A DNA stretch of 64,000 nt, from positions 2,611 through 66,610 of the forward strand of contig CAZSDC010000001.1 of assembly GCA_964605515.1 (NCBI GenBank), in the 5' to 3' direction. The notes below the pieces were generated by a model. It saw nothing but the letters and a program-made list of their open reading frames with translations. It searched no databases and had not been told where the DNA came from. Of the stretch, positions 4,402 through 61,765 are shown in pieces. This stretch comes from an uncultured Chthoniobacter sp. (GTDB lineage Bacteria > Verrucomicrobiota > Verrucomicrobiia > Chthoniobacterales > Terrimicrobiaceae). A program made the translations under genes and the position numbers. Position 1 is the first letter of the stretch, and the number at the start of each line of letters is the position of its first letter.

Positions 4402-5358
4402 ATGAACGATCCCAAACCTCTCCTCTCCATTCTTGTTCCCTGTTACAGGGATGAGACTGGTCTGGAAGAGCTTCATCGCAGGCTGACGCTTGTCTGCAAG
4501 GGCCTGGGCTGCACTTATGAGATCGTTCTTGTCGAGGACGGGTCGCCCGACAGAACGTGGGACGCGATCTGCAGGCTGGCGGCCTCGGATCCCGCCATTG
4601 TCGGAATCCGGCTTTCAAGGAACCACGGCCACCAGCTCGCCGTAACCGCCGGACTCCACAACGTGCGGGGAGAACGCGTGATGATCATTGACTCCGACTT
4701 GCAGGATCCCCCCGAGCTTCTTCCTGATATGATGAAGCTCATGGATGCCGGGGCGGACAATGTTTACGGCCAGAGACTCAGCCGTGAAGGCGTCCCGCTT
4801 TGGAAGAAGTTTTGCTATAAAGCGTATTACAAGCTCCTGAGCGCCCTGGCCGGTTGCCACATCCCTCCGGATACCGGCGACTTCCGACTGATCAGCAGGC
4901 GAGTCGTTAATCTCGTGAATTCCATGCCGGAACACCACCGGTTTCTCCGCGGCATGATCAGCTGGCTCGGCTTTACGCAGGTCCCCATCTTCTATCACCG
5001 GGAAGCCAGGTTCGCTGGCGAGTCGGGGTATACGCTCGCGAAGCTGTTCCGTGTTGCAGTGGACGGAATCACCAGCTTCTCCATCAAGCCCCTGCGCCTG
5101 GCATCCCTGCTGGGCGCGCTCTTCGGCTTCCTTTGCCTCCTCGGGGTCGGCTATTCCATCTTCGGCTACCTGCAAGGAAATACCGGCGTGGCGGGATGGA
5201 CCAGCATCATGGCCGTCATCCTTCTCTCCTTCAGCCTCCAGTTTTTTGTCCTGGGCATGATCGGCGAATATATTGGGAGGTTGTTTATCGAGCAGAAGGG
5301 ACGCCCCCTCTTCATCGTGGACAAAGTTGTCGGCGGAGGCCGATCCGGAAACAAATAA
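4402..5358 (+). CDS. GT2 polyprenyl-phosphate glycosyltransferase (GtrB/ArnC/DPM1-like) with two C-terminal TM helices
   Basis: SILVPCYRDE...VLVEDGSPDRT, IIDSDLQDPPELLP (the DxDLQxPPE motif of GtrB/ArnC), and the C-terminal hydrophobic pair LASLLGALFGFLCLLGVGYSIF / IMAVILLSFSLQFFVLGMIGEYIGR. Confidence 0.85.
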   Translation: MNDPKPLLSILVPCYRDETGLEELHRRLTLVCKGLGCTYEIVLVEDGSPDRTWDAICRLAASDPAIVGIRLSRNHGHQLAVTAGLHNVRGERVMIIDSDLQDPPELLPDMMKLMDAGADNVYGQRLSREGVPLWKKFCYKAYYKLLSALAGCHIPPDTGDFRLISRRVVNLVNSMPEHHRFLRGMISWLGFTQVPIFYHREARFAGESGYTLAKLFRVAVDGITSFSIKPLRLASLLGALFGFLCLLGVGYSIFGYLQGNTGVAGWTSIMAVILLSFSLQFFVLGMIGEYIGRLFIEQKGRPLFIVDKVVGGGRSGNK

Positions 5359-5376
5359 CCCAACCCCCGACCAGCT

Positions 5377-6186
5377 ATGGCCATCTCTGAAAAACTCGCT
5401 AACTCGCTGCTTTTCCGCCGGATCGTGAAATCCCTGCGCCTTCCGGATCTTATCACTGCATGGTTTCGGAGTTTTCCGAAAGTCGTTTCGCTTCCGCCCC
5501 ACGGGATAAAATACCGCGTGCGTGCGTTCGAGTCCCTGCTCGTCGAGCGGGAGGTCTTCGCAAGCAATTTTTACGCGGAGATCATCGCCCCTGGCCGGGT
5601 TGAGACGTTCGCGGACCTCGGCTGCAACCGCGGGCTTTTTTCCGCCTATGTGATTTCCCGAAGCGCCGCTGGACATGCCGTGCGCGGCATCATGGCCGAT
5701 GCGGACGGGGAAATGCGGCAGGATTGCGAGTGGATCATCAAGGCCAATAATCTTTCCGGAGTTCACTTCTTTCAGGGGGCCGTCGGGGTTGAGTCTGCAG
5801 ACGGATTCATCTCGTTCGAAGTGGCTGAGACGGACGTCGGGTCGCATGTTGCATTTGATGGAAAAAAGGCCCCGGGAGAAACCATTAGCACGGTGGTGCG
5901 GGTCCCGGTGCTGGGGATCGGAAAACTTTGGAACGAGACGTTCGGGCCAAGAGTAAGGTGCAACCTCCTGAAGGTCGACATCGAGGGGGCTGAAAAGGAT
6001 TTTTTCCGCATCGAAAAAGAATTTCTGTCGCTGGTGGACCAGGTGATCGTGGAGATCCACCATTACTTTGCTCCGCCGGCTGCTGTGCTCGCCGACGCGG
6101 CTGAGGCAGGATTTTTGGTGATCAAGCACAAGCCGGTGGCCGAGGGAGTGAGCATCGCCTGCTTGGCCCGGAAAATTGATGGATAG
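5377..6186 (+). CDS. FkbM-family SAM-dependent methyltransferase
   Basis: FADLGCNRGLFS (motif I) and LLKVDIEGAEKDFF, the characteristic FkbM (Methyltransf_21) motif. Confidence 0.8.
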   Translation: MAISEKLANSLLFRRIVKSLRLPDLITAWFRSFPKVVSLPPHGIKYRVRAFESLLVEREVFASNFYAEIIAPGRVETFADLGCNRGLFSAYVISRSAAGHAVRGIMADADGEMRQDCEWIIKANNLSGVHFFQGAVGVESADGFISFEVAETDVGSHVAFDGKKAPGETISTVVRVPVLGIGKLWNETFGPRVRCNLLKVDIEGAEKDFFRIEKEFLSLVDQVIVEIHHYFAPPAAVLADAAEAGFLVIKHKPVAEGVSIACLARKIDG

Positions 6187-7936
6187 CCTGATCTTCTGGT
6201 CTGATAACGTGAGGCTTTATGGCTTTACCGTCTGGACGCTGTTTTTTGTGTCCCTGGTGCTCGCCCTGCTTCCGGCGATCCAAGAGCTGCTGCCCGATGG
6301 CCTCCGGCAGTTTGTGCCATCCGGGCTGACCCATCCGGCCTGGTTCCTGGTATCGGCAGTGCTCCTTCTCTTCGCCGGCCGTTGGCCCGGGGTCTTCTAC
6401 AACAGCGCTTACAGTGTGGATGAGGCGCAGATTCTGGCCGCGGCTCAGGTTCTCACAATCGACCCGGTGTTCTTCCGCTCAGCCGAGTGCGGATCCTCAG
6501 GCCCGATAGTCGTTTACCCGCTCCTCCTTTCGAAGATCTTTGGATGCGACCCCTCGCTATTTTCCGCGCGCGTCATCGGGTTGGCCATGCTCGCCGGCTG
6601 CGCGGTCACACTCCGGGGGATTTGTGAAACCTTCTGCCGACCAGCAACTGCAAGGACAGCGACCCTCGCAGCCGTGGTCTTTTTTGCTTTCACCCGGCAT
6701 TGGGACTTTGTCCACTATACGAGCGAACACGCGCCGCTGTTCTTTTTGTTCTGCGGGTTGTGGTGTGTCTGCAACGTCGAATTCCACTCTATTGGATCGA
6801 CAAGAAAATTTGCAGCCACCGCGTGCGCCGGAGCGGTTTTGTTCTCCATAGTCCCATTTGCCAAACTTCAGGCCGCGTATCTCGGGCTTTTCTCCGGCAC
6901 CCTTCTTGTGATTGTCGTCCTTTTCCGCAGGGATCTGCCGTTCCGAAAGCGTCTGGTGATCGCGGGGATGACCGCTTTCTGCGCATTGGCATTTCCTCTA
7001 TTATTGATTCTCATGGCCTTGGTGACCGGCTCAGGGGACTACCTTCTGAACAGCTACTTCGGCAATGCACTTGCCTACGTGGAGAGCGGGTTCTCCACAG
7101 GAACATCGTTTCTTCTTATGTGGAAACTGTTGGTCCAGTCAGCGGATATCGTCGCCTTCGCTGCGGGTTCTCTTCTCTTTGCCCTGGCCGCTGTCTCCGC
7201 CCTTCTTGCTCCCAGCACAGCGCGGTTGGACCGGCGGCTGTTGGGCTTTTCACTCGCTGGATTTCTTCTTCTTGCCCTTGCGATCTGCGCGGTCCTTTCT
7301 CCGCGCCGCGACTACGGCCACTACCTGATTTTTCTTCCGTTCTTTCTGGCTCTATTTGCAGCATCGCTTTCCGGACTCCTCGTTCGTCGTGCCGCCGATT
7401 CCGGGCTGACCCCCCGCAGCCAATCCGCTTATGAACTCGGTTGCTCGGCACTCCTGGCACTTTTCCTGATTTTTCCTGCTGCTGGATTGCGTTGGGAGTC
7501 CGGAAATCCTTGGGCGGGGTCGGGCCGATATTGGTCGCAACAGGCAGCCAAGCCCCAGGATCCGGTCGTGCTCGCGATCAAGAAGGCCGCAGCAAAGTCA
7601 AACCGAAGAATGACTGTGTGGGGCTACATGCCCTACTATTACATCGAAACGGGGCTCAGACAAGCCACACGCCTGAGCACGAGTTCCGCGATGTTCAACG
7701 ACAACCCGCTGCGGCCGTTCTTTGTGGCCACCTACCTCGAAGACCTCAAACGCAACCGGCCGGATGTCTTTGTGGACGCTGTCGCTCCCGGGAGCTTTAT
7801 GATGAATGTTCCCGAACAACAGGCATTTGAACGCATCCCCGAGGTGGCTGACTACATCCGTGCAAACTATTCGCTCGCACGCGAAGTCAATGGTATCCGG
7901 ATTTTCCGCAGAAACAAACCGGGTGACAATGAGTGA
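6179..7936 (+). CDS. polytopic membrane protein, GT-C-like (ArnT/PMT_2-like) glycosyltransferase candidate
   Basis: ATG at 6179 (the ORF track starts at TTG 6176) overlaps the upstream stop. There are more than 10 hydrophobic segments, an acidic motif SVDEAQILAAA in the first loop, and a soluble C-terminal domain of about 150 aa. Confidence 0.6.
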   Translation: MDSLIFWSDNVRLYGFTVWTLFFVSLVLALLPAIQELLPDGLRQFVPSGLTHPAWFLVSAVLLLFAGRWPGVFYNSAYSVDEAQILAAAQVLTIDPVFFRSAECGSSGPIVVYPLLLSKIFGCDPSLFSARVIGLAMLAGCAVTLRGICETFCRPATARTATLAAVVFFAFTRHWDFVHYTSEHAPLFFLFCGLWCVCNVEFHSIGSTRKFAATACAGAVLFSIVPFAKLQAAYLGLFSGTLLVIVVLFRRDLPFRKRLVIAGMTAFCALAFPLLLILMALVTGSGDYLLNSYFGNALAYVESGFSTGTSFLLMWKLLVQSADIVAFAAGSLLFALAAVSALLAPSTARLDRRLLGFSLAGFLLLALAICAVLSPRRDYGHYLIFLPFFLALFAASLSGLLVRRAADSGLTPRSQSAYELGCSALLALFLIFPAAGLRWESGNPWAGSGRYWSQQAAKPQDPVVLAIKKAAAKSNRRMTVWGYMPYYYIETGLRQATRLSTSSAMFNDNPLRPFFVATYLEDLKRNRPDVFVDAVAPGSFMMNVPEQQAFERIPEVADYIRANYSLAREVNGIRIFRRNKPGDNE

Positions 7937-8759
7937 GGCGCCACGCATATCCGTCTGCATCCCGGTCTATAATGGCGCGGCCCATTTGGCGGATTGTCTG
8001 AGAAGCGTCGCCGCCCAGGAAGTCCCGCGCCTTGAAATTGTTGTCTCCGACGACAATTCATCGGACGGATCTTTGGATGTTATTGCTGGTGTGCAGAAAG
8101 AATTTCCGGGAACTGATTGGCGGGTCGTCAGGAATCCGATCCGCCTGGGCATGGCTGGAAACTGGAACGCTTGCGTCGAGGCTGCATCCGGGCAGCTTAT
8201 CAAAGTGATGGGGCAGGACGACATCCTCTATCCCGGATGTCTCGCGGCACAGGCCGCCATAATTGCTTCCGAGGCAGAAGTTGCGGTTTGCGCATGTGCC
8301 GGGGACATTTGCTCTGCATCTGGAAGAAAAATCCCTCTCAGAAGAAAAAAGCATGACGAGGGGATTCACTCGGGCAACAAGTTGATCGAAGATTGCCTCC
8401 GGACGGCGGCCAACCCGATCGGTGAGCCCGTGACCACAATGTTTCGGAAAACCGATTTTCAAAAAACGGGGGGGTTTGATTTGTCGATGCGATATTATAT
8501 CGATGTGGACATGTGGCTGAGGCTTCTGGGGAACAGGAAGTTTGCATTTATTGAAAAGTCCTATTGCGGGTTTCGCGTTCATCGGGGCGGGGCATCTTTT
8601 ACACTTCAGGGCGAAGGATACTCGGAGTTTCTGCGCATGGAAAACAAACTGAATTCCCGCAGGCCGCTTCCGCAGCGGGTCCGATTTGTTCGTCGGATTT
8701 CGGCCTTCCGCGACTCCTGCCTGCGCCTGGCCGCCTACCGGATTTTTGGAGCCATTTAA
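7929..8759 (+). CDS. GT2 glycosyltransferase
   Basis: Internal ATG at 7929 (MSEAPRISVCIPVYNGAAHLADCLRSV...VVSDDNSSDGS) overlaps the upstream stop by 8 nt. DDIL lies at the DxD position. Confidence 0.8.
   Translation: MSEAPRISVCIPVYNGAAHLADCLRSVAAQEVPRLEIVVSDDNSSDGSLDVIAGVQKEFPGTDWRVVRNPIRLGMAGNWNACVEAASGQLIKVMGQDDILYPGCLAAQAAIIASEAEVAVCACAGDICSASGRKIPLRRKKHDEGIHSGNKLIEDCLRTAANPIGEPVTTMFRKTDFQKTGGFDLSMRYYIDVDMWLRLLGNRKFAFIEKSYCGFRVHRGGASFTLQGEGYSEFLRMENKLNSRRPLPQRVRFVRRISAFRDSCLRLAAYRIFGAI
8701..8759. repeat. left copy of a 59-nt direct repeat (3' end of the GT2 gene)
   Basis: Hand alignment with 9861-9919 gives 48/59 identical positions, including an identical 14-mer CGCGACTCCTGCCTGC core. 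Both copies end in TAA. Confidence 0.7.
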
Positions 8760-9481: not shown

Positions 9482-9502
9482 AGTCGAAATTTTCGACTTC
9501 AA
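9478..9502. repeat. perfect 12-nt inverted repeat (hairpin) overlapping the vapC stop codon
   Basis: TTGAAGTCGAAA-T-TTTCGACTTCAA. There is no T-tract after it, so it is not a canonical intrinsic terminator. Confidence 0.5.
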
Positions 9503-9919: not shown

Positions 9920-9925
9920 TTCGAT

Positions 9926-16187: not shown

Positions 16188-16192
16188 ACCGG

Positions 16193-26248: not shown

Positions 26249-27316
26249 ATGGCTCCCGTATTACTTCTTTTGTTCAACCGCCCCGACCTTACGGCTGGGC
26301 TAATCTCGTCTCTGCGCCGAGCGGCTCCACCCCGTATTTTCATCGCTATCGATGGGCCGCGGGCGGGTGTGGAGGGCGAGGCAGAGCGGGTTGAGGAGGT
26401 TAGGTGCCTCGCTGAGGCAATTGATTGGCCATGCGAAAAGCGCTGGCTCATACGCGATGGAAATCTCGGCTGCGGTCTCGCCGTGAGCGGCGCGATCACC
26501 TGGTTCTTCGATCAGGTGGATGAAGGGATAATACTCGAGGACGATTGCCATCCCGATCCGACATTTTTTGAGTTTTCCAACTCAATGCTTGACCGGTATC
26601 GAGATGATGCCCGCGTTTTTTTAATTTCTGGAACGAGTCTTTTGCCGTCCAGCATCGCAACCACCGAGCCATACTTTTTCTCAAAATATATGGGCGTGTG
26701 GGGATGGGCGACATGGCGGCGCGCGTGGAAGACCTACGACTATAGCCTTTCCACGCAGAGCGCCGATGAGTGGAAAAGAATTATTGTAGCTCACAACGAA
26801 AATGCCGTGGAGCGCCGATACTGGCTGCACATTCTGGAATTGATGCTTGAGGGAAAGATCGACACATGGGATTTTCAGGTCCAGTTTTCTGCGTGGAAGA
26901 AGAATTCCTTGCACGTGACCTCGTCGCGCAATTTGGTGGAAAACTTCGGGTTTCGCGGTGACGCAACCCATACTAGAACTCCCTCTCCTTTGGCTGCGCG
27001 CCATACTATCCCTAATCCGGCTCCCTATCCGGACTTGCCTGTTGTTGTGGATACCATTCTCGACCGTATTGTATTTGGCGAGAAACTCCATGCTTCTCTC
27101 GAGCTCGCCGAATGGCTCTTTGGCGGCGGCCGGGAGCGCGAATGCGCAAACAAAGTGGAGCGGCTTTCTGCAGAATTGCTCGAAGCCCGCGGACACCTCG
27201 GCCAGGCTGCTGCCGACATCGCGCTAAAGGCCGAACATATTCACGCAATGAAATCAGAAATCGCCGGCTATTATGGTTTTTCCGGGGCTCTCCAGTGCCT
27301 GCGTAAAATGTTCTAA
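26249..27316 (+). CDS. GT-A-fold glycosyltransferase (HlpA/GNT-I-like) with a C-terminal coiled coil
   Basis: APVLLLLFNRPDLTAGLISSL, IILEDDCHPDPTFFEF (EDD), WGWATWRRAW. Tail: KVERLSAELLEARGHLGQAAADIALKAEHIHAMKSEI. Confidence 0.6.
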   Translation: MAPVLLLLFNRPDLTAGLISSLRRAAPPRIFIAIDGPRAGVEGEAERVEEVRCLAEAIDWPCEKRWLIRDGNLGCGLAVSGAITWFFDQVDEGIILEDDCHPDPTFFEFSNSMLDRYRDDARVFLISGTSLLPSSIATTEPYFFSKYMGVWGWATWRRAWKTYDYSLSTQSADEWKRIIVAHNENAVERRYWLHILELMLEGKIDTWDFQVQFSAWKKNSLHVTSSRNLVENFGFRGDATHTRTPSPLAARHTIPNPAPYPDLPVVVDTILDRIVFGEKLHASLELAEWLFGGGRERECANKVERLSAELLEARGHLGQAAADIALKAEHIHAMKSEIAGYYGFSGALQCLRKMF

Positions 27317-27326
27317 CCGGTCCCTT

Positions 27327-41069: not shown

Positions 41070-42050
41070 ATGAAAATAAGTATTATCACACCGTCGTTCA
41101 ATCAGGCGGAGTTTCTCGAATCAACACTACAGAGCGTGCTCTCACAGACCGGAATCGATTTAGAATATATCGTCGTAGATGGCGGTTCAACCGATGGGAG
41201 CAAGGAAATTATTGAAAAACACAGCGGCAAGCTGGCGTGGTGGTGCAGCGAGCCGGACGGGGGGCAATACCAGGCGATCAACAAGGGGTTTGAGAAAGCC
41301 ACCGGCGAAATTCTCGCATGGCTCAATTCATCGGATATTTATCTTCCGTGGACGCTGACCACAGTATCACAAATCTTTTCAAGTCATCCCGGAGTGAACT
41401 GGCTGGCTGCCAATCACAAGCTGTGCATTGGCGAAAAGAACGAGTTTGCAGGTTATCAAAAGCTCCCGGGATACTCCCGGAATGCCTTTATCAAGGGAAT
41501 GCATGGCAGTCGACAGAACACAAACTTTATTCAACAAGAGACATGCTTCTGGCGCCGCTCCCTCTGGGACAAGATTGGAGGAAGGATTCCCGACACGTAT
41601 AAATATGCCGCCGACTTTCATCTCTGGTCGCTTATGTTTGAGCGCTCCGCCCTGACAGGGGTCGAGTGTCCTCTGGCTGCCTTTCGGTATCATGATGATC
41701 AGCGGAGCAAGATCGATGGCTATATGGACGAAGTGGAAGCCGTTCTGGCAGAGGCACGCAAATCCTCATCGATGCCGTCGCATCATGCTGAGATGCCGGT
41801 TGCATATTTAAAGCCTTCCAAGGAAGGGGACGAGGGGTTCGGCCGATGGGTGTTGAGCGTGATGGAGAACGACAACTTCATTTTCGAGGTGGATAACGCA
41901 GAGGTGGCGCTTCAGAAAAAAGAGCGGGTTATCGAAGAGCTGAATACTGCATGCATTGACCGTCTGGCAATCATCGAGAGGCTCAGAAGCGAGAATACGT
42001 TGAAGTTCCAACTGGAGCGCTTTGTCAGACACATGTTCAACAAATACTGA
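41070..42050 (+). CDS. GT2 glycosyltransferase (paralog set B, no N-extension) with a C-terminal coiled coil
   Basis: Internal ATG at 41070. MKISIITPSFNQAEFLESTLQSVLSQ...VVDGGSTDGS...PDGGQYQAINKGF...WLNSSDIY. Tail: AEVALQKKERVIEELNTACIDRLAIIERLRSENTLKFQLE. Confidence 0.8.
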   Translation: MKISIITPSFNQAEFLESTLQSVLSQTGIDLEYIVVDGGSTDGSKEIIEKHSGKLAWWCSEPDGGQYQAINKGFEKATGEILAWLNSSDIYLPWTLTTVSQIFSSHPGVNWLAANHKLCIGEKNEFAGYQKLPGYSRNAFIKGMHGSRQNTNFIQQETCFWRRSLWDKIGGRIPDTYKYAADFHLWSLMFERSALTGVECPLAAFRYHDDQRSKIDGYMDEVEAVLAEARKSSSMPSHHAEMPVAYLKPSKEGDEGFGRWVLSVMENDNFIFEVDNAEVALQKKERVIEELNTACIDRLAIIERLRSENTLKFQLERFVRHMFNKY

Positions 42051-42808
42051 TGAATACTCGCGATTTGCATTTGCTTTCGGTCGTTATTCCGGCCCGTGAC
42101 GAGGAGGGATGCATCGCATCAACGGTTGCCCATCTACACCTCGAGCTTAAACTGCGTGGAGTCCCTCATGAAATCATCGTGGTGGATGACGGCAGCACGG
42201 ATCGCACCTGGGAAATTCTCGGAGAGACCCGGGCACAAATCTCCGAGTTGGTCCCCCTTCAAAACCCCGGGCCGCACGGCTTTGGTAGGGCTATCGTAAA
42301 AGGGTTGAACCATTTTACCGGTGATTGTGTCGTGATCATGATGGCGGATGAATCTGACGATTGTCGTGATGTGGTGCGCTATTGGGAGGAACTCAACCGC
42401 GGATACGACTGTGTGTTTGGCAGCCGCTTCATGCGGGGCGGCGGGGTGATTGACTATCCGAAAATCAAACTCACGCTTAACCGACTTGCAAACGCATTTG
42501 TCAAAGTTCTATTCCGACACGGGCTGAATGATACGACGAACGCATTCAAGGCCTACAGGCGCACTGTCATTGAGGGAATCCGTCCGATTCTCTCGCCCCA
42601 TTTCAACATTACAGTAGAATTGCCACTCAAGGCGATCGTCCGGGGGTATTCTTTCAGCACAATTCCCATCACTTGGCGTAACAGGCGACATGGCGTCGCG
42701 AAGCTCAAGATTCGCGAAATGGGGAGCCGCTATCTTTTCATCTGCCTCTATGTTTGGCTTGAGAAATACTTCAGCGGTGGCGACTACAAAAAGCTATCTT
42801 CCGAATGA
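42050..42808 (+). CDS. GT2 polyprenyl-phosphate glycosyltransferase-like (DPM1-like)
   Basis: LSVVIPARDEEGCIASTV...IIVVDDGSTDRTWEIL...IMMADESDD...NAFKAYRR. Start overlaps the upstream stop by 1 nt (TGATG). Confidence 0.8.
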   Translation: MNTRDLHLLSVVIPARDEEGCIASTVAHLHLELKLRGVPHEIIVVDDGSTDRTWEILGETRAQISELVPLQNPGPHGFGRAIVKGLNHFTGDCVVIMMADESDDCRDVVRYWEELNRGYDCVFGSRFMRGGGVIDYPKIKLTLNRLANAFVKVLFRHGLNDTTNAFKAYRRTVIEGIRPILSPHFNITVELPLKAIVRGYSFSTIPITWRNRRHGVAKLKIREMGSRYLFICLYVWLEKYFSGGDYKKLSSE

Positions 42809-43803
42809 TTCTCGAAAAGATTAGTGCCAGAATAGCGAGATGGCCCCAACTGTATCTGTTCCATCATCGGAGGATCCGCTACCGGATTAAGACCGGAAAA
42901 ATCCGACCGTTTGATCCTGTATATTATCTGCAAGCATTGCACTGGATGCAGCTTGGGAAATATCAACACTACGCTCCCAGGAAAGTCACCTTTGACAAAC
43001 TGCCGTCCGGCAAGTCTTCATGTGCGTCCTTGCCTTCAATCTCAATTGTTACTCCAAGCTACAATCAGGGGGCATATTTGGAACAAACGATAAAAAGCGT
43101 TTGCAATCAGAACTATCCCCGCCTGAGCTATGCTGTTGTCGATGGGGGGTCCTCGGACGGAAGCTGTGATGTTATAAACCGCTACCGTGCCTTTTTAAGC
43201 TACACAGTCAGCGAAAAGGACCGGGGCCAGTCGGATGCGATTGCAAAAGGAATGCGCCATGTGTCAGGAGAAATCCAGGCATATCTGAACTCCGATGACC
43301 TCCTGGCTCCCGGGGTATTGCGCTTTGTCGGGAGCTACTTTGCTGAGCATCCGGATGTCGACGTGGTGTATGGGCACAGAATTATTGTCAACCACAACGC
43401 CGAGGAAATCGGGCGTTGGATTCTTCCAAGGCACTATCCCGAATCGATCATCCACTTTGATTTTGTTCCACAGGAAACCATGTTTTGGAGAAAATCAATC
43501 GCGGAGCGAATTGGCGGCATCAACCCCGATCTTCACTATGTGATGGATTGGGACTTCCTCCTCCGTCTCCAAAATGCCGGGGGCACGATCAGGCGTTTGC
43601 CATATTTTATGGGATGCTTCAGAGCTCACGAAGTCCAAAAGAGCCAGTCAGGGTCCGAAGTCGGAAAGCAGGAAATTCTGGATGTGATGAAAATGTTCGG
43701 CGGGGACTGGCATTTCGGAGCGGAATTCATGCGGGCCGAACAGGAACTCAAGCGCAGAGCCCTTTGGACATCGATTCAAATGGTATTCGGTATCCGCTCA
43801 TGA
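42805..43803 (+). CDS. GT2 glycosyltransferase (paralog set B, with N-terminal extension)
   Basis: ISIVTPSYNQGAYLEQTIKSVCNQNY...VDGGSSDGS...EKDRGQSDAIAKGM...YLNSDDLL. Roughly half of the residues are identical to the 40022 protein by eye. ATGA overlap. Confidence 0.8.
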   Translation: MILEKISARIARWPQLYLFHHRRIRYRIKTGKIRPFDPVYYLQALHWMQLGKYQHYAPRKVTFDKLPSGKSSCASLPSISIVTPSYNQGAYLEQTIKSVCNQNYPRLSYAVVDGGSSDGSCDVINRYRAFLSYTVSEKDRGQSDAIAKGMRHVSGEIQAYLNSDDLLAPGVLRFVGSYFAEHPDVDVVYGHRIIVNHNAEEIGRWILPRHYPESIIHFDFVPQETMFWRKSIAERIGGINPDLHYVMDWDFLLRLQNAGGTIRRLPYFMGCFRAHEVQKSQSGSEVGKQEILDVMKMFGGDWHFGAEFMRAEQELKRRALWTSIQMVFGIRS

Positions 43804-43831: not shown

Positions 43832-45469
43832 ATGAGCATTTCATCTTTTGTGGAGAAATACCCAATGGCGGTCCGAGCTTTCTTGATCGTTGTTCTCACG
43901 GCTGTATTTGTGTCCTTGTGCGTTCAGCAATCCCGCATAAAGGGGCGGTTGTGTTCAGTTCCAAATTATGACGACGTCGTATATCTATACCAGGGTGCAC
44001 TACTTCAGAAAACCGTTGCCAACGAGGGCATCAACGGATTCCTAAGATTTCTCAGGGAGACCGATCTGCATAGCCCGTTCTCAATTTTCCTCGCCGCGGT
44101 TTCATTCGCTATTCTGGGTATACGGGATGATGCCCCATACATTGCGAATCTGATTGTGGTCGTCGGATATCTCGCGGGGTTGACTTGGTTCTTCAGAAAA
44201 CTGAAGTTTTTCGACTGGCTCCTGTGCGCAGTCATGTTTTTGACTCTGCCATTCATGACAATAGGGGTGGTGGAGTTTCGCCCCGATATCGCATGGGCTG
44301 TTATGGCTGGATTTGGCGTCGTCTGGTTCGTGACGGAGCCTGCGGTCTTTTCGAATTACTCAAAAGCTGCTTTGTCGGGCATGTTTTTGGGGCTGGCGCT
44401 CACTATAAAGCCGACGACATTTGCGATGACAGTTTTGTTGTATTCCGGGGCGATCATCTCAAGGGCGGTCATTGGCTATTCGACCCTGAGGGAATCCCAG
44501 TCCCCGGGGACGATAAGAATCATAAAAGGAGCGATCATTGTTTTGATTGTGGCATGCCTTTTCGCTGGCCCGTATTGGTTGCGATACGGGCGTGAAGTAT
44601 GGGAGTACTTCTACATAAACTCGTTTGGTGTAAACAAGGCGGTTTGGTCGCTGGACATGGGGCTGTTTGATTCCATTACTTACTACATCACTGGTGCCGG
44701 AGGGGTCTCAAATCTTGGCAGATCGGGGGCGATCCTTTTCTTATTCACCTTGCTTTGTGCCAGTCTTGCATTTGTCCGGTTCCGTCAAATCCGGCTCAAC
44801 ATGGTCTTTCTAATGCTGATCCTTCTGGGCGCATGCGCGGTAAATTCCGTGGCTTCGATGAAACAGCCGTTTCTCGGAGGAGGCTTCTATGGGGTTCTGA
44901 TATTTTCTTCCGCCTATCTCATCGCTTTGGTATATGGAGCGAACGATCTTGGGATCAGGGCGAGGGTGATATTGCGCATTGTGCTTTGTTTTTTTTGCGC
45001 GGCTTCGATCATCTCGTATGCTTGGCCTGATTGTAGCGACTATTTCAAAACCCGAATGGATTCCCTAGCTAATCTAAAGGGCAGCAACGAGTTTCTTGTC
45101 AGAAATCTCAAAGAATCCGGGAGCGGAATCCCTAAAAGCATTCTTTTTACCCAGGCAGGCCCGATCATCATGGAAGGAGTTGGGCTTTCCATGCTGAGAG
45201 ACAACCTGAATCCCACGATGCGTTGGGGTGCATTTATCCGGAATGCGGAGGGATTCAGGTGGACCTACCCCAACTTTGACTGGGTTCTGCTCCAAGATCC
45301 AGGGATGAAGGGATCGTCTCCAAATATGCCCTCGGAAGCCATCCTTCCAGAATTTCAAGCCGTTATCGCCGCAGACCCTAACTACAAGGTTCATGCGGAA
45401 TACATTGATGCCGACGGAAAGAGGATCGTAATTTACAGCCGGATTGACCGGAATCACGGGGCAGAATGA
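43832..45469 (+). CDS. GT-C-like polytopic membrane protein (paralog family A)
   Basis: GRLCSVPNYDDVVYLYQGA after TM1, then HSPFSIFLAAVSFAILGIRDDAPY. More than 10 TM segments and a soluble C-terminus. Confidence 0.55.
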   Translation: MSISSFVEKYPMAVRAFLIVVLTAVFVSLCVQQSRIKGRLCSVPNYDDVVYLYQGALLQKTVANEGINGFLRFLRETDLHSPFSIFLAAVSFAILGIRDDAPYIANLIVVVGYLAGLTWFFRKLKFFDWLLCAVMFLTLPFMTIGVVEFRPDIAWAVMAGFGVVWFVTEPAVFSNYSKAALSGMFLGLALTIKPTTFAMTVLLYSGAIISRAVIGYSTLRESQSPGTIRIIKGAIIVLIVACLFAGPYWLRYGREVWEYFYINSFGVNKAVWSLDMGLFDSITYYITGAGGVSNLGRSGAILFLFTLLCASLAFVRFRQIRLNMVFLMLILLGACAVNSVASMKQPFLGGGFYGVLIFSSAYLIALVYGANDLGIRARVILRIVLCFFCAASIISYAWPDCSDYFKTRMDSLANLKGSNEFLVRNLKESGSGIPKSILFTQAGPIIMEGVGLSMLRDNLNPTMRWGAFIRNAEGFRWTYPNFDWVLLQDPGMKGSSPNMPSEAILPEFQAVIAADPNYKVHAEYIDADGKRIVIYSRIDRNHGAE

Positions 45470-56283: not shown

Positions 56284-56410
56284 GGGGCGGTTACGTTGGC
56301 ACTTTCTGGAACGGTTGTCATATGCAAATATCAGGTCCTCCTCAATGTGGTGGCTGTTTCCTCACGTCCGTGCCTGGATGGAGAGAGCCCGTGAACACCA
56401 GACCTCACAA

Positions 56411-57313
56411 ATGAAAATCCTTCCCGCATGGGTCCGCCGCAGGACCATAGATTTTTGCCGTGTGAATTTCGCGGCATCCGCTGTTCGCCGGCGCGATCCG
56501 CTGCCCCACCATGGGCATCCGGTGTCCCTCCACATGGTTCTTTCGCGCGACGGCCTGCTGATGGGGCAACTCGCGCTGCGGAGCCTGGAATTCCATTCCG
56601 GCTTCAGTTGGGCGCCCGTGCTGCACGACGACGGCACGCTGAGTGACCGGGATGTCGCGGAACTCCGCTCGAACTTTCCCGATGCTGTGGTGATCCGGCG
56701 CACGGAAGCGGATGCCGCGCTCGGAGAGGCGCTCGCCAGCTATCCGCAGTGCCGGGAGAACAGGCTCAAGCACCCCTGGTTTCTGAAAGTTTTTGACACG
56801 CGGCATTATGCCACACACGACCGCTACATAGTCCTCGACAGCGACATCGTTTTTTTTCGTAGGCCGGATTTCGTTTTGGACTGGATGGGAAAGCGTCCGG
56901 AAACATTCTGGTTCATGGAAGACACGAGGGAAAAATATTCGTCCGACCGCGCAGGCATCGAGGCCGCGATGGGATTTCCATTGTGGGAGCGCGTCAACAG
57001 CGGGCTTGACCTGATGGTCCGCCCAGCGGTGGATCTCGCGCTCGCAGAAAAATTTCTTGAGCGCTGCGCGCCGATCGCGCGCGAATTCCATTTTCTCGAG
57101 CAGACATTTTTTGCGGTGGCCGGTTCAGTCTGGGGAAAAGGGGGGAAGCTGCCGCGCGAATACGAAATCAGCTGGACGAATTTCCGGCGGCCGGGTGCTG
57201 TCTGCCGTCACTATGTCGGGCCGTTCAAGAACGACGCGCTCTTCATTGAAGGCGCGAGCGTCTTCTGGTGGCAGTCACGCCGCGTGCTGCGGAGTCGTGT
57301 GGAGAAAAATTAG
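56411..57313 (+). CDS. hypothetical protein, possible DxD-type glycosyltransferase
   Basis: ATG at 56411 (alternative 56345), downstream of the divergent FkbM start. RYIVLDSDIVFFRRPDF is a DxD-like motif after a beta-strand. Confidence 0.45.
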   Translation: MKILPAWVRRRTIDFCRVNFAASAVRRRDPLPHHGHPVSLHMVLSRDGLLMGQLALRSLEFHSGFSWAPVLHDDGTLSDRDVAELRSNFPDAVVIRRTEADAALGEALASYPQCRENRLKHPWFLKVFDTRHYATHDRYIVLDSDIVFFRRPDFVLDWMGKRPETFWFMEDTREKYSSDRAGIEAAMGFPLWERVNSGLDLMVRPAVDLALAEKFLERCAPIAREFHFLEQTFFAVAGSVWGKGGKLPREYEISWTNFRRPGAVCRHYVGPFKNDALFIEGASVFWWQSRRVLRSRVEKN

Positions 57314-57314
57314 T

Positions 57315-58067
57315 ATGAGCGAAACAAACCTGGACCAGCACAACATCGAGATTCACGAGAACCGTCTCGCCTGGGAAAAGAAAAAGTCCCTGCGGATGGC
57401 TTACGGGCGGTTCTACGCCGCGATTGCCGGGCATATACAGCCCGGCCTGCCCGGCCTGAAGCTCGAACTCGGATCCGGGATGGGAAACATCAAGCAATAC
57501 ATCCCCGACTGCATCACCTCGGACCTTTTCCCCAACCCGTGGCTTGACCGGGTGGAGAATGCATATGCCCTGAATTTTCCCGACGGCAGCATCGGCCACC
57601 TCATCCTATTTGATGTCTGGCATCATCTGGAGTATCCGGCAAACGCCCTCAAGGAAGCCCGGCGGGTCTTGGTGCCGGGAGGGAAGATCATTCTCATGGA
57701 GCCCGCCATGAGCCTGGTGGGCCGCTTGGTTTACGGCAACTGCCATCACGAGCCGCTCGGCTTCGAGTCCAAATTTTCCGATGTTCCGGCGGATATCAGC
57801 GCACCGGAGGCGACGCGTTACTTTGCGGCCCAATCCTCCGCACACCGTATGTTTCTCAAGCGCGAGCTGCCAGGCGTCCTGCGCGGGTGGGATGTTTGCA
57901 GCATTAGACAAATCACCTCGTTCGCCTACCTCGGCTCCGGGGGCTTTCGCGGACCCCAACTCTACCCGGACTTTGTGGCTCCGGCGGTCCGCCTCGCCGA
58001 TTCCGTCTTGGGCTTGCTACCGGACATGTTTGCCGCAAGGATCCTGGCCGTCTTAAAAAAGCTCTGA
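57315..58067 (+). CDS. class I SAM-dependent methyltransferase
   Basis: Internal ATG at 57315, 1 nt after the upstream stop. LKLELGSGMGNIKQYIP (motif I), LILFDVWHHLEYP, GGKIILMEP. Confidence 0.75.
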   Translation: MSETNLDQHNIEIHENRLAWEKKKSLRMAYGRFYAAIAGHIQPGLPGLKLELGSGMGNIKQYIPDCITSDLFPNPWLDRVENAYALNFPDGSIGHLILFDVWHHLEYPANALKEARRVLVPGGKIILMEPAMSLVGRLVYGNCHHEPLGFESKFSDVPADISAPEATRYFAAQSSAHRMFLKRELPGVLRGWDVCSIRQITSFAYLGSGGFRGPQLYPDFVAPAVRLADSVLGLLPDMFAARILAVLKKL

Positions 58068-58122: not shown

Positions 58123-59514
58123 ATGAACAAATCCGGTTCCAGCGTCGCCTTTTTTGAAGGCGGATATTACAAGGAAAAACCCGGGGGATTGGCCTACCGC
58201 CGTTCGCTGGCGCATTATTTGAATCTGGTCATTCCCGGGTCCGCCGACCTGCTGGAGATCGGTTGCGGGAGCGGGCAGTTGCTCGGACTCCTCAAATCCC
58301 GTTCCAAGACCGGGATCGACGCCTCGGCAAGCCAGATCTCGGAGGCCGAAAAGAATTGTCCGGGGGCCGTGTTTATTTGCGGGGATGCCTGCGAGGTGAA
58401 CCCGGATGCCGCGTTCGACGTGGTGCTGGTGTCGGATACTTTGAACCATTGCAGTGACGCGCAGGCACTGCTAGAGGCAGCCCGGCGGTTTGCGCGACCG
58501 GAAGCCAGGCTCGTGATCACGACATACAACACGCTTTGGCGTCCGGCGCTTTCGTTTCTTACATCCTTGGGGCTTCGTTCTCCGCAACCGGACTTGAACT
58601 GGCTATCCGGAAACGACGTTCGCAACATCGCCGAACTGGCGGGCTGGGAAATCATCAAGTCCGATGGTCGCATTCTGCTGCCCGTGCAGTTGTCTTTTCT
58701 TTCCGCTTTTGTGAACCGCTGGGTGGCGCCGTTCCTGCCGGTTTTTTGTCTGGCGAACATCATGGTGGCGAGAAGGGCGGAAAAAATGGCGGGTTCCCCA
58801 TCGGTTTCGATCGTCATCCCGGCGAGGAACGAGGCAGGAAACATCCCCGCCGCCATCGAGAGGATTCCGGCCATGGCACCCGACATCGAGTATATTTTTA
58901 TCGAGGGGCATTCGACGGATTCGACATGGGAGGCAATCGTCAAGGTTCAGGCCGCACATCCTAACAAGAAAATCAAAATTGCCCGCCAGACAGGAAAGGG
59001 CAAAGGCGATGCCGTGCGGCTGGGGTTTTCGATGGCCGAGGGGGACATCCTGATGATCCTCGATGCCGATCTCACAATGCCGCCAGAGGATCTGCCGAAA
59101 TTCTACCGGGCGCTGGCCGATGGCAGGTGCGAGTTTGCTAACGGCTGCCGGCTTATCTACCCGATGGAGAAGGAAGCGATGCAGTTCCTCAACCTTTGCG
59201 CCAACAAGCTCTTCGGGGTTTTATTCTCCTGGATTCTCGGCCAGAACCTCAAGGATACCCTCTGCGGCACCAAGGTCCTAAGCCGGAAAAACTACGAGGC
59301 TATCGCTCGGAACCGGGCCTATTTCGGAGACTTCGATCCGTTCGGGGATTTCGACCTGCTGTTCGGAGCGGACAAGCTGAACCTGAAAATCCGAGACATC
59401 CCGGTGCGATATCGCGAGCGCACCTACGGATCAACCAACATAAGCCGTTTCCGACACGGCATCCTGCTCTTCCGCATGGTCGCTTTCGCGGCCAAAAAGC
59501 TGAAGTTTGTCTGA
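58123..59514 (+). CDS. bifunctional class I SAM methyltransferase / hydrophobic linker / GT2 polyprenyl-phosphate glycosyltransferase-like fusion
   Basis: N-domain: LLEIGCGSGQLLGLL, VVLVSDTLNHCSD. Linker: LLPVQLSFLSAFVNRWVAPFLPVFCLANIMV. C-domain: VSIVIPARNEAGNI...IFIEGHSTDST...ILMILDADLTMPPEDLPKFY. Confidence 0.8.
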   Translation: MNKSGSSVAFFEGGYYKEKPGGLAYRRSLAHYLNLVIPGSADLLEIGCGSGQLLGLLKSRSKTGIDASASQISEAEKNCPGAVFICGDACEVNPDAAFDVVLVSDTLNHCSDAQALLEAARRFARPEARLVITTYNTLWRPALSFLTSLGLRSPQPDLNWLSGNDVRNIAELAGWEIIKSDGRILLPVQLSFLSAFVNRWVAPFLPVFCLANIMVARRAEKMAGSPSVSIVIPARNEAGNIPAAIERIPAMAPDIEYIFIEGHSTDSTWEAIVKVQAAHPNKKIKIARQTGKGKGDAVRLGFSMAEGDILMILDADLTMPPEDLPKFYRALADGRCEFANGCRLIYPMEKEAMQFLNLCANKLFGVLFSWILGQNLKDTLCGTKVLSRKNYEAIARNRAYFGDFDPFGDFDLLFGADKLNLKIRDIPVRYRERTYGSTNISRFRHGILLFRMVAFAAKKLKFV

Positions 59515-59518
59515 ACGC

Positions 59519-61765
59519 ATGTTGAAGAAAAACTCCCTCTGGCCGATTTTTTCTGGCGGCCTGGTGCTTCTCGCGTTGGTTCTGTCATTTCCAGGCTGGT
59601 TCGGGCTTTCGAAGACCGTGCGGATTGTCGGGGTCCAGAGCCCGGACGGATTTGTTCTCACCGCTGAAATGCCGCCGGGCATGGCGGGCGAGCGCAAGCG
59701 GGATTTTCTATTTCCGGATTCTCCGGTTCTCTACGAAAACGGCCGCGCGCTGGCACGCCCCTGGTCGTCCTATAAACAGATTACCAGCGCGGGCCGGGGG
59801 CGCTACCAGATCAGCGGTTCCAACATCCATTTCTCGACGTCTGACGGGGAGCCGCCCGCAGCCCGCGAATACACGATCCGCGCGCCGATGTGGTCGCTTC
59901 GCGAGTCTTTGCTTCTGGCGATCTGGCTTGTTGCGGTTGCGGCTGCTGCCGTCGCGATTCGCATGGCGCTGCCGGACGGGGCGGGAAGTTTTGCTCAATG
60001 CCGCTGTGTCGCATACGCGGCGCCCGGGCTGGCCCTGGCGCTTGTCGCGATCTTTTTCTGGCGGGCGACGAGTTTCTCCGACCAGTTTTTTCTGGGTCTG
60101 ACAATACCCGCGATCTGGGCCGCCGCGATGGGCCTGCTGGCCACGCAAAAGCATTTCGCCGGACGGGCGGGCCTGGTCGTTCTGGCGGTATTGCCCGCGT
60201 TTGCCGGCTGGTTCTACTACGGCTTCAACGCTGCTTCCGACAGTTCGTTCCTCGTTGGCGGCGTCATCCCCTGCAGTGATGCCTGGCTCCATTTTCTGCA
60301 AGCTGCCGAGATCGCGGTTCACGGGACAACGAAGGTTTTGTTCAACGGGCGCTTTTTCTACCCGGCATTTTACTCGGTGATCCTGGATGTCGTCGGGCTG
60401 AACATCCTCGTTGCGAACCTGGTGGTTTCCCTGCTGGTGATGCTGGGACTCGCGTTCACTTGCAGGCTTGTCGCCAAGCGCCTTGGATTTGCCGGAGCCG
60501 CGGTTTATTGTCTCCTCTTCTGGCTGTATTTTCGTGTTCACGGGTGTGGGCTCGTGATGACGGAAAACCTTGGCCTGCTGCTCGGAACACTCGGGTTCGG
60601 ATTCCTTCTGTTATCGGTGGGCCGGGAAAATATTCTGTCGATTTATTTAGCGATCCTGTTTTTCGGACTTGGGTCGGTGGTGAGGCCCGGTGCGCTTTTT
60701 ATTCTTCCAGCTCTGGCGCTTTACGCGGGGTTCCGGGTCTGGATCGAGCGTCCGGGACGGATGAGAATGGCCTCCTCCGCCACCGCTGTAGTTCTTGGTC
60801 TGGCGCTGACCGCCGGATGTTTTGGAGCAAACCGCCTGGTCATGAAATCGCTCTCGGTTGGGGAGGGGAAAGCCTTTCAAAATTTTGCATTCACCCTGAG
60901 CGGCCTGCTGAACGACACCACGTGGAGCACGAGCGCCGATGCCTCCGGATGGGACGCTGCACTTGTCATGGAGCAGAACATCAAGCAGATCAAAGAATCC
61001 CCGGCCAGCCTGGTCCGCGGGGTTGGCCGCGCCTACGGGGAAACGATGAAAAAGGGGTTCCTGTTCCGTTTCGGACCGGAAAAGCGGCTCGCCTCAAGCG
61101 GTATGACAATGTTCATTCTAGCCTCGCTGGGCTGCTGGCTCTGGAAGCCGCTCCGCCGCGATGCCGGTTGGATTATTCTCGTTGTAGCTGCGATCATTGC
61201 ATCCATCCCTTTTGCGCCTCCTTGGGACGCTGGCGTGAGGCCGTATGCCGCGAGTGTGCCGGTCCAGATCTTTCTGGCGGCTGCCGGCTTTGCTATGCTG
61301 ATTGATCTTTTCCGCAGGCTCGCGGAAGCCGTTGTCACGGGCGCTCCCGCCGGTTTTCTGCGGGAGATACCGGATGGCGATCTGACCGCAGGGGATGCAA
61401 CTTTCAATACCGCGCCTGGCCTCATCCTGCTTTCGGCTCTGTGCTTTTTCCTGGTTTTTCCCGCTCCACTGATCCTGAAACTGTCAGGCTTCCGCCACCC
61501 GGTTCCCTCGGAGGCACCGGCGTCGTTGCCCGGTTCCAGAGTGTTGGTTTCCCAGGAGGGACCATCGCATTTCGGCTGCATCACCCGCGCGAACTTCCTC
61601 GACCGGCTCTCGAATTTCCAGGCCTCCTACCCGAAGGAGGCAAAATTTTTTAGCTCCCAGCCCGCTGACTTTTTGTTGGCGGTCAACTGGAGCAGTTTGC
61701 AAACAGTCCTCCTGCCATGGCCGGACGGTGCTACGGGAGCCGCGCTCCCGCTTCCCGAACGATGA
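59519..61765 (+). CDS. large polytopic membrane protein (GT-C-like candidate) with an N-terminal extracytoplasmic domain
   Basis: ATG at 59519 (alternative 59507). One TM, then a soluble segment of about 100 aa, then more than 12 hydrophobic segments. 748 aa from the 59519 start. Confidence 0.5.
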   Translation: MLKKNSLWPIFSGGLVLLALVLSFPGWFGLSKTVRIVGVQSPDGFVLTAEMPPGMAGERKRDFLFPDSPVLYENGRALARPWSSYKQITSAGRGRYQISGSNIHFSTSDGEPPAAREYTIRAPMWSLRESLLLAIWLVAVAAAAVAIRMALPDGAGSFAQCRCVAYAAPGLALALVAIFFWRATSFSDQFFLGLTIPAIWAAAMGLLATQKHFAGRAGLVVLAVLPAFAGWFYYGFNAASDSSFLVGGVIPCSDAWLHFLQAAEIAVHGTTKVLFNGRFFYPAFYSVILDVVGLNILVANLVVSLLVMLGLAFTCRLVAKRLGFAGAAVYCLLFWLYFRVHGCGLVMTENLGLLLGTLGFGFLLLSVGRENILSIYLAILFFGLGSVVRPGALFILPALALYAGFRVWIERPGRMRMASSATAVVLGLALTAGCFGANRLVMKSLSVGEGKAFQNFAFTLSGLLNDTTWSTSADASGWDAALVMEQNIKQIKESPASLVRGVGRAYGETMKKGFLFRFGPEKRLASSGMTMFILASLGCWLWKPLRRDAGWIILVVAAIIASIPFAPPWDAGVRPYAASVPVQIFLAAAGFAMLIDLFRRLAEAVVTGAPAGFLREIPDGDLTAGDATFNTAPGLILLSALCFFLVFPAPLILKLSGFRHPVPSEAPASLPGSRVLVSQEGPSHFGCITRANFLDRLSNFQASYPKEAKFFSSQPADFLLAVNWSSLQTVLLPWPDGATGAALPLPER

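Follow-up and report, generated by a model that had tools for sequence, protein, structure and literature searches.

A 64,000-nucleotide stretch of DNA from an uncultured Chthoniobacter sp. (contig CAZSDC010000001.1, positions 2,611 to 66,610; hereafter the window) was found to contain four gene modules in which a family 2 glycosyltransferase (GT2) resembling the synthases that load polyprenyl phosphate with a single sugar is encoded beside one or more large membrane proteins, most of them of the GT-C class. Three of the four modules also carry an S-adenosylmethionine (SAM) methyltransferase, which is encoded between the synthase and GT-C genes or is fused to the synthase. Based on these features and on their conservation in other genomes, we propose with moderate confidence that the modules carry out Gtr/Arn-like extracytoplasmic glycosylation to which a cytoplasmic methylation of the sugar donor, the presumed methyl acceptor, has been added. 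The modules were outlined in an earlier reading of the bare sequence (the original prediction). Every gene that it named is present as a plus-strand open reading frame (ORF) at the expected position, and each of its motifs (DSDLQDPPE, SVDEAQ, VDADGA, NGDEAW, PDYDD, MDYED and PNYDD) was found; however, it overlooked a GT2 at 42805 and a methyltransferase at 57057. Further, module (i), which it had drawn as a GT2, a methyltransferase and a GT-C protein, additionally has gmd (3354) upstream and an ordinary GT2 (7806-8759) downstream. The genes of the modules, together with M2 and its upstream neighbor, are as follows.

Module (i):
4402..5358, plus strand: G1, GtrB/PgfS-type polyprenyl-phosphate glycosyltransferase, a GT-A domain with two C-terminal transmembrane (TM) helices (PF00535, 94 bits)
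5377..6186, plus strand: T1, FkbM-family SAM methyltransferase, cytoplasmic (TIGR01444, 52.9 bits, cutoff 37.7; PF05050, 27.5 bits)
6179..7936, plus strand: M1, ArnT-like membrane glycosyltransferase of GT-C fold (structure model; no Pfam family)
7806..8759, plus strand: GT2 of the ordinary glycan-extending type, fourth gene of the module (PF00535, 93 bits)
Upstream of module (ii):
27273..28376, plus strand: GT2 of a class other than DPM1/GtrB, preceding M2 (PF00535, 44 bits)
28394..30118, plus strand: M2, polytopic protein of a large uncharacterised family (8 hydrophobic segments)
Module (ii):
30126..30902, plus strand: G2, short GT2, weakly ArnC-like (PF00535, 40 bits)
30890..31621, plus strand: T2, class I SAM methyltransferase (PF13489, Methyltransf_23, 61 bits; PF08241, 35 bits)
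31618..33324, plus strand: M3, PMT_2/Agl23-like, GT-C-like membrane protein (NGDEAW motif after TM1)
33350..35182, plus strand: M4, paralogue of M5 (blastp E 5e-20 to M5 and 1e-11 to M6; PDYDD motif after TM1)
35199..37256, plus strand: M5, PMT_2-family GT-C protein with a large C-terminal extracytoplasmic domain (MDYED motif after TM1)
Module (iii):
42050..42808, plus strand: G3, polyprenyl-phosphate hexose synthase of the DPM1 type, no TM helix (PF00535, 81 bits)
42805..43803, plus strand: ordinary GT2 between G3 and M6 (PF00535, 78 bits; 46% identical to the GT2 at 40022)
43832..45469, plus strand: M6, paralogue of M5 (blastp E 1.2e-26; PNYDD motif after TM1)
Module (iv):
57057..58067, plus strand: second, separate SAM methyltransferase of class I, immediately upstream of G4 (PF08241, 39.8 bits)
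58123..59514, plus strand: G4, fusion of an N-terminal class I SAM methyltransferase and a C-terminal DPM1/AglJ-type GT2
59519..61765, plus strand: M7, membrane protein with a GT-C fold and a beta-rich first outer loop; its family is narrow (structure model)

Junctions within the modules are tight or overlapping (5358/5377, 6186/6179, 30902/30890, 31621/31618 and 59514/59519), with the end of G2 overlapping the start of T2 by 13 nt and the end of T2 overlapping the start of M3. M1 and M3-M7 are all encoded adjacent to, or at most two genes from, a synthase gene. The true start of the ordinary GT2 at 7806 is probably near 7930.

Our searches set most of the proposed synthases apart from the other GT2s of the locus. 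In phmmer searches of the PDB, G1 matched the GtrB protein Sll0501 over its full length (246 bits; residues 28-329 of Sll0501) and ArnC with 147 bits, and in NCBIfam it matched PgfS with 218 bits. Its TM helices lie at residues 236-254 and 269-287, and the DSD motif is present. The best PDB match of G3 was DPMS (5mlz, 75 bits), with ArnC at 52 bits, and its NCBIfam matches were dolichyl-phosphate hexose transferase (69.5 bits) and AglJ (67 bits). The GT2 half of G4 matched AglJ in NCBIfam (99.6 bits) and DPMS (60 bits) and ArnC (51 bits) in the PDB. ArnC was the sole, weak PDB match of G2 (32-35 bits), and is thus matched by all four proteins. Two control GT2s from the window, at 52517 and 7806, gave a different picture: chondroitin synthase, GalT1 and PglI-type enzymes ranked at the top, and DPMS and ArnC came last for 52517 and were absent for 7806, which matched chondroitin synthase and similar enzymes best and retrieved no DPMS, ArnC or GtrB at E<=0.001. 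The blastp similarity of the GT2 at 27273 was likewise restricted to ordinary GT2s, and an all-against-all blastp comparison set G1, G3 and G4 apart from that group. Taken together, these results support the predicted assignment of G1, G3 and G4 to the polyprenyl-phosphate class and contradict the idea that they are ordinary nucleotide-sugar-to-glycan transferases. For G2 the same assignment is weakly supported.

All seven membrane proteins (M1-M7) are polytopic, with 7-13 hydrophobic segments each. M1, M2, M4, M6 and M7 have no Pfam or NCBIfam match of their own, and sequence and profile searches of the PDB with M5, M1 and M7 returned nothing useful. AF2 models of M1 and M7 were built on homologue alignments. 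The M1 model (pLDDT 91.6, pTM 0.93) was compared with the PDB using Foldseek, and the best match was ArnT (5f15, E 1.4e-6, TM-scores of 0.53/0.56); the top 28 matches were all GT-C enzymes. Residues D82 and E83 in the first outer loop of M1 are invariant in 35 M1-family sequences. For the M7 model (pLDDT 82.8, pTM 0.86), the top 11 matches were all GT-C enzymes (Emb, AglB, STT3 and PglB; probability 0.99-1.0, E 5e-4), at low TM-scores of about 0.3. M1 and M7 are placed in GT-C because of the structure models only, and with them two membrane protein families that have no Pfam model are now placed among these enzymes. M5 matches PMT_2 (PF13231) with 31.9 bits, above the gathering score of 26.1. 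M3 falls below that score (24.1 bits, E 4.7e-5), and it matches the Agl23 model TIGR03663 with 34 bits (E 1.3e-8). M4 and M6 would be GT-C proteins by virtue of their paralogy with M5, and acidic DE, DD or ED motifs follow TM1 in M3-M6. The M1-family profile showed no relation to M5 or to the M7 family; therefore, the seven proteins are not one family, and only M4, M5 and M6 are paralogues.

M2 belongs to a family with 4026 representatives at E<=0.001 (50% clustering), typically of about 700 amino acids. No Pfam family of its own, none common to 30 homologues and no meaningful PDB profile match was found, and a weak match to NADH-dehydrogenase chain 5 was rejected as a match of hydrophobic segments. 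In hhalign comparisons M2 was weakly related to the M1 family (44-50% probability), with D56 of M2 (SYDGDS) aligned on the DE motif of M1. This residue lies just after TM1 and is invariant in the M2 family. These similarities are only suggestive of a GT-C protein.

An alternative identity for the polytopic proteins would be Wzy/WaaL-type polymerases or ligases, or transporters. The five proteins that lack a family match of their own, among them the unassigned M2, leave some room for it. However, only GT-C enzymes appear at the top of the M1 and M7 comparisons, where WaaL and Wzy are absent from the top matches and transporters appear only at probability <=0.4. M5 and M3 match PMT_2 and Agl23, none of the seven proteins has a Pfam match to the Wzy_C domain, and an acidic motif stands just after TM1 in all of them, with its position in M7 the least certain. 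We consider this alternative very improbable overall and refuted for six of the seven proteins. The original prediction of seven GT-C-like proteins is thus supported for all but M2, by models (M1 and M7), family matches (M3 and M5) or paralogy (M4 and M6), and none of the seven could be assigned to the Wzy or WaaL proteins or to the transporters.

The arrangement of module (i) recurs in other genomes. Within the window alone, a chance estimate for the arrangement is borderline (about 0.03), and the argument therefore rests on conservation across genomes. Loci with relatives of M1 (47 metagenome loci and four contigs) were compared with the window genes, and 12 of them had a close M1 homologue (32-41% identical) and enough upstream DNA to be counted (loci of other genomes are given by L numbers). 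A G1-type GtrB gene, 74-85% identical to G1, lies directly upstream of the M1 homologue in 11 of the 12, and in nine of these 11 a methyltransferase is encoded between the two. The methyltransferase in this slot is of the FkbM type in six loci (L002, L085, L087, L089, L092 and L104) and of an unrelated class I type in three (L084, L090 and L095). Three short contigs end inside an upstream FkbM gene. A GT2 like that at 7806 (46-71% identical) directly follows the M1 homologue in eight loci, and in five (L084, L085, L087, L088 and L089) it is followed in turn by a G3-like synthase (76-80% identical). A gmd gene or a related reductase gene is found upstream in related module (i) loci. The trio proposed in the original prediction is thus conserved, and the methyltransferase is a frequent partner that is kept in other genomes. 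It is not, however, a consistent one, being absent from module (iii) of the window, from two of the 11 related loci and beside distant relatives of M1. Homologues of M3-M6 were absent from the retrieved loci, which had been gathered by way of M1 relatives and the fusion.

The components of the modules differ in how far they have diverged. G1 is 74-85% identical across L002, L084-L095, L104 and L111, and the adjacent methyltransferase and GT-C proteins are just 32-41% identical. The synthases appear strongly constrained, G3 being likewise at 76-80%, and their partners diverge. Two or three tandem GT-C-like paralogues were also seen beside DPM1-like synthases or the fusion in L097, L024, L059 and L055. 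A locus with several GT-C genes is therefore less unusual than the original prediction held, since such loci also occur in L024, L059 and L097.

In module (iv), the methyltransferase and the synthase are linked by fusion. Pfam identifies both domains in the single ORF at 58123 (Methyltransf_11 at residues 44-132, 55 bits; PF00535 at residues 229-356, 86 bits), and therefore the predicted fusion is real. No TM helix was found in G4, nor was one predicted in T1. A membrane anchor between the two domains of G4 was considered and rejected as improbable, given a median hydropathy of 1.39, a '...FxVAR' pattern and a similarly hydrophobic C-terminus in T2; the stretch is read as the end of the methyltransferase fold. 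The fusion is also widely conserved. Its homologues fall into more than 120 protein clusters (58-100% identity), all with both domains, and a scan of one genome per species confirmed it in at least 592 stretches, the best 80 of which show 50-80% identity. The hosts belong to Verrucomicrobiota, Bacteroidota, Desulfobacterota, Chloroflexota, Planctomycetota, Acidobacteriota, Nitrospirota, Myxococcota, Omnitrophota and Pseudomonadota. The fusion is also found on 16 Azospirillum plasmids, annotated as 'bifunctional class I SAM-dependent ...' or 'glycosyltransferase'. In an alignment of 84 fusion sequences, SAM motif I (ExGCGxG), the acidic SAM-binding residues and the PARNE, DAD and RxYGxT motifs are invariant. 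Since catalytic motifs are invariant in both domains, both halves look catalytically active. The DADLxxPPE and RxYGxT motifs of the GT2 domain are those of the AglJ/DPMS/ArnC class.

The neighborhood of the fusion was examined in 82 loci, with a large polytopic ORF defined as one of at least 450 amino acids and 7 TM helices. Such an ORF lies within 400 nt of the fusion in 29 of the 82 loci and within 3 kb in 44. At 0-500 nt from the fusion there are 3.86 such ORFs per 10 kb, against 0.14-0.22 at 6-10 kb, so that large polytopic proteins are enriched about 20-fold directly beside the fusion. They include YfhO proteins (PF09586; in several Verrucomicrobiota loci), polytopic proteins bearing TPR repeats, a Bacteroidales family with a GDDSSY motif and the M7 family. 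An M7 homologue is encoded directly downstream of the fusion in L002, L003, L004 and L010, which belong to the window's own clade, and Wzm adjoins the fusion in other loci. A methyltransferase of the 57057 type (30-54% identical) is present in 32 of the 82 loci and directly beside the fusion in 29; therefore, the system often carries two methyltransferase modules. This type of neighbor spans phyla (e.g. L013, L024, L028, L034 and L040). In L062, a metagenome-assembled genome of the Desulfobacteraceae, a minus-strand gene for a UbiA-family prenyltransferase (299 amino acids, 164 bits) lies beside the fusion and recalls the polyprenyl phosphoribose synthases of arabinan and pentofuranose pathways.

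The fusion could instead be a soluble enzyme with two activities, sugar addition to a growing glycan and methylation, in the manner of WsaE or ManT/MeT, with its membrane neighbors serving separate functions. Precedents are WsaE-type methyl-rhamnosyl capping and mycobacterial methylmannose polymer synthesis by ManT/MeT. The absence of a TM helix would fit such an enzyme, as would weaker PDB matches to the family 2 glycosyltransferase 6yv7 (30.6 bits) and to GpgS and the frequency of Wzm/Wzt and DegT genes among the neighbors. However, the GT2 domain scores far higher with AglJ, DPMS and ArnC and carries the motifs of that class, and some known DPM1-type synthases likewise have no TM helix (human DPM1, PpgS and GacI). 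The roughly 20-fold enrichment of GT-C/YfhO-type polytopic proteins also argues against a soluble enzyme, as does an LPG_synthase_TM gene that overlaps the start of the fusion gene in Azospirillum Sp7 and adjoins the fusion in L023. We consider a soluble role improbable.

Another alternative concerns the methyltransferases as a whole and turns on the ABC exporter of the locus:

37207-38127, plus strand: Wzm (PF01061, 60 bits)
38160-39011, plus strand: Wzt (PF00005, 78 bits; 283 amino acids; NCBIfam galactan/teichoic-acid Wzt/TagH type, 187 bits)

These two genes lie in the middle of the locus, which agrees with the ABC-exported polymer of the original prediction. Under this alternative, the GT2/GT-C pairs would be ordinary three-component systems and the methyltransferases would be unrelated to them, O-methylating the cytoplasmic polymer, linked to undecaprenyl pyrophosphate, or its non-reducing end, as WbdD does. 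Methyl caps are standard in ABC-transporter pathways (PMC11127046). The 57 genes include about 17 GT2s and no fewer than seven methyltransferase genes or domains, so that some would be expected to lie side by side. Several fusion loci have an adjoining Wzm/Wzt pair, and the Wzt of L001 has Wzt_C, the module that reads terminal caps; module (iii), L094 and L111 lack a methyltransferase. In the window, however, Wzt has no carbohydrate-binding (cap-reading) module by Pfam and NCBIfam, which show the ATPase domain (ABC_tran) only. The order GT2, methyltransferase, GT-C is held in nine of 11 loci despite divergence of the methyltransferase and GT-C proteins to 32-41% identity, and two unrelated methyltransferase families fill the one slot. 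The covalent fusion, for its part, is kept at 50% identity or more across phyla among the best 80 matches. Methyltransferases unrelated to the GT2/GT-C pairs are thus, in our view, unlikely. Both this alternative and that of a soluble fusion are weakened by the class of the GT2s, by a Wzt without a cap-binding module and by the enrichment of GT-C and flippase-like neighbors.

Several observations weigh against methylation of a lipid-linked donor as the general function of these modules. G2 resembles ArnC weakly (35 bits), M2 is at most suggestive of a GT-C protein and the Foldseek TM-scores of M7 are low. A methyltransferase is lacking in module (iii) and between GtrB and GT-C in two of the 11 related loci (L094 and L111), and in more distant loci the GT2 that accompanies an M1-like protein is GtrB- or DPM1-like and comes without a methyltransferase (L097, L106, L119, L125 and L126). 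About half of the fusion loci have no large polytopic neighbor within 3 kb, and some adjoin Wzm/Wzt or DegT genes, which would fit a cytoplasmic, polymer-modifying role too. There is also no flippase gene within the window. In two of the distant loci, L097 and L119, homologues of G3 (64-66% identical) lie directly upstream of M1-like GT-C genes. Since distant loci pair GT2 and GT-C without a methyltransferase, the GT2/GT-C pair is the older core and the methyltransferase a frequent addition.

With these points in mind, we propose the following pathway for methylation of the donor. A polymer would be built in the cytoplasm and exported by Wzm/Wzt, and several Gtr/Arn-like modules would then decorate it at the outer face of the inner membrane. 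Within each module, a GT2 of the DPM1/GtrB/ArnC type would load polyprenyl phosphate, the likely lipid, with one sugar taken from a nucleotide sugar. The methyltransferase would methylate the donor before flipping, with either the polyprenyl-phosphate sugar or its nucleotide precursor as substrate, and the GT-C protein would use the lipid-linked sugar as its donor and so deliver an already methylated sugar to the presumed acceptor, the exported polymer. SAM is cytoplasmic and the active sites of GT-C enzymes face outward; therefore, methylation must precede flipping. The slot between synthase and GT-C, its occupation by an unrelated replacement family and the covalent fusion together suggest methylation within the donor branch, where it would take the step that ArnD occupies in Arn. 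In module (i), the sugar may be a GDP-derived 6-deoxyhexose, as suggested by the neighboring gmd. ArnD and DprE1/E2 are precedents for enzymes that edit a sugar while it is attached to its lipid carrier. A further precedent is the methyltransferase AglP, which acts on a dolichol-phosphate-linked glycan (PMC3871713).

A flippase for the lipid-linked sugar may be encoded elsewhere in the genome. As the original prediction had stated for GtrA, none is apparent in the window: no Pfam match to GtrA, SMR, MATE or Wzx was found among its 57 genes, no small hydrophobic protein is encoded by intergenic ORFs of 70 or more amino acids, and the membrane proteins other than M1-M7 are an Acyl_transf_3 protein and Wzm only. 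A 120-amino-acid gene that follows the M1 homologue in L085 was considered as a small flippase and rejected, as it is a frameshifted tail of M1. On plasmid p5 of Azospirillum brasilense Sp7 (L133, 7863-10344), the fusion gene overlaps at its start with a gene for LPG_synthase_TM (PF03706), a flippase-like protein; such a gene also adjoins the fusion in L023, and PF03706 scores 122-152 bits. By its gene position, this protein is a candidate flippase for the lipid-linked product. Azospirillum brasilense Sp7 is a cultured, genetically tractable host and would be a practical test system.

A broader reading is possible, and we offer it tentatively. In about ten phyla, methylated polyprenyl-phosphate monosaccharides would serve as GT-C donors in a widespread pathway. 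The methyltransferase would be a fourth component of Gtr/Arn systems, encoded between synthase and GT-C (by FkbM or class I genes interchangeably) or fused to a DPM1-like synthase, and often accompanied by a second methyltransferase. If so, surface glycans would receive their methylated sugars outside the cell, from lipid donors methylated beforehand, rather than through methylation of the finished polymer. Coupling of a methyltransferase to donor synthesis would, if true, be a further case of sugar editing on or just before the lipid carrier (as by ArnD, DprE1/E2 and AglP), and it would account for the arrival of methylated side-chain sugars on polymers that have already left the cytoplasm.

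The modules form part of a single, very large cell-envelope glycan locus, in which 57 ORFs were scanned against Pfam and NCBIfam. The GC content is about 55% and almost every gene is on the plus strand. Among the 57 genes are about 17 GT2 genes, GT1/GT4 genes, at least seven methyltransferase genes or domains and the seven large polytopic proteins. Other features of the locus include:

3354..4376, plus strand: gmd, GDP-mannose 4,6-dehydratase (TIGR01472, 539 bits, cutoff 415; PF16363, 489 bits)
47682: GT9 heptosyltransferase-like gene
55555-56283, minus strand: FkbM methyltransferase, the sole minus-strand gene of the locus (65 bits)

The upstream position of gmd relative to module (i) is conserved, and copies 87-95% identical lie upstream of the GtrB gene in L002, L090 and L095. 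L004 is syntenic with the window from 45.5 to 63.5 kb; the minus-strand FkbM gene (55555-56283), the ORF at 56132-57313 and the 57057 methyltransferase are nevertheless missing from it (9031-10001), which suggests an insertion around 55555-57313. A complete-looking operon for a nonulosonic acid of the legionaminic/pseudaminic type is also present (11109-22313). It encodes a dehydratase, a DegT aminotransferase, NeuB and a GNAT protein, a fusion of a cytidylyltransferase with a class III aminotransferase (14145-16187) and an acetamidino branch consisting of a WbuX amidotransferase (350 bits) and HisH/HisF-like partners. A protein further along (23756-25411) weakly matches the BFO_1060 glycosyltransferase family. 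Toxin-antitoxin-like pairs lie within the locus at 8830-9481 and 2398-3320; the types seen are a small antitoxin with a PIN-like protein and a nucleotidyltransferase with its partner. A VapB/PIN pair occupies the same relative position in L084 (6455-7077), after the 7806-like GT2.

Three-component systems acting in the periplasm are among the main sources of the antigenic diversity of bacterial surface glycans, and they are being used for glycoengineering. That such systems decorate ABC-exported polymers outside the cytoplasm is established (PMC11127046). The original prediction, which stressed an unusually extensive decoration layer, was thus overstated in this respect, and the methyltransferase is the only candidate for a novelty. 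In the literature that we searched, no description was found of a module of methyltransferase, GT2 and GT-C or of the fusion. Public records of the fusion read 'glycosyltransferase' or 'bifunctional class I SAM-dependent ...' only, and our proposal gives this large, unannotated protein family a testable function.

Several known systems resemble the modules in part. In Arn (ArnC-ArnD-ArnE/F-ArnT), as proposed here, a GT2 synthase is followed by editing on the cytoplasmic face, flipping and a GT-C enzyme, and ArnT is the best structural match of M1. In contrast, the editing enzyme here would be a methyltransferase rather than a deformylase, with editing on the lipid itself a conjecture; the acceptor would probably be a polysaccharide and not lipid A, and ArnE/F are absent from the window. 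CsbB and YfhO (with GtcA) glycosylate lipoteichoic acid in Bacillus and Listeria (PMC5836110, PMC7389260). They too combine a GT2 that makes a C55-phosphate sugar with a YfhO-family GT-C protein, and YfhO proteins adjoin the fusion in several Verrucomicrobiota loci. However, the hosts here are of the Gram-negative type, the synthase bears a methyltransferase domain and the window has no YfhO gene.

The Agl pathway of Haloferax volcanii comprises the synthases AglJ and AglD, the methyltransferase AglP and the Dol-P-Man transferase AglS (PMC3871713). It resembles the modules in having GT2s that load dolichol phosphate and a SAM methyltransferase in a lipid-linked pathway; AglJ is the best match of the fusion's GT2 domain and M3 matches Agl23. 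It differs in being archaeal protein N-glycosylation, with AglP a separate protein that methylates the hexuronic acid of a tetrasaccharide. We know of no equivalent in it of the fusion or of the gene order. Chain terminators of the WbdD/WsaE type resemble the fusion in joining a methyltransferase domain to glycan-synthesis functions in Wzm/Wzt loci. Unlike these terminators, the GT2 domain here is of the DPM1/AglJ class and the window's Wzt lacks a cap-binding module; they are also serotype-specific, whereas the fusion is kept at 50% identity or more across phyla among its best 80 matches.

The closest comparison is with GtrA/GtrB/Gtr* systems, which have relatives in ABC pathways, namely the galactose-addition pathway of Klebsiella and the pentofuranose system (GT136) of Citrobacter youngae (PMC11127046). 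As in these systems, a polyprenyl-phosphate synthase and a GT-C protein would decorate an exported polymer; G1 is a full-length GtrB homologue and the locus has Wzm/Wzt. Unlike them, the window has no GtrA, SMR or MATE gene, and it unites no fewer than four synthases with six or seven GT-C genes in a single locus, with M1 and M7 families that have no Pfam model. A SAM methyltransferase is moreover inserted beside the synthase or fused to it. Judged from sequence, the modules would thus be Gtr-type systems in their synthase and GT-C features, without a dedicated small flippase in the window and with a methyltransferase added.

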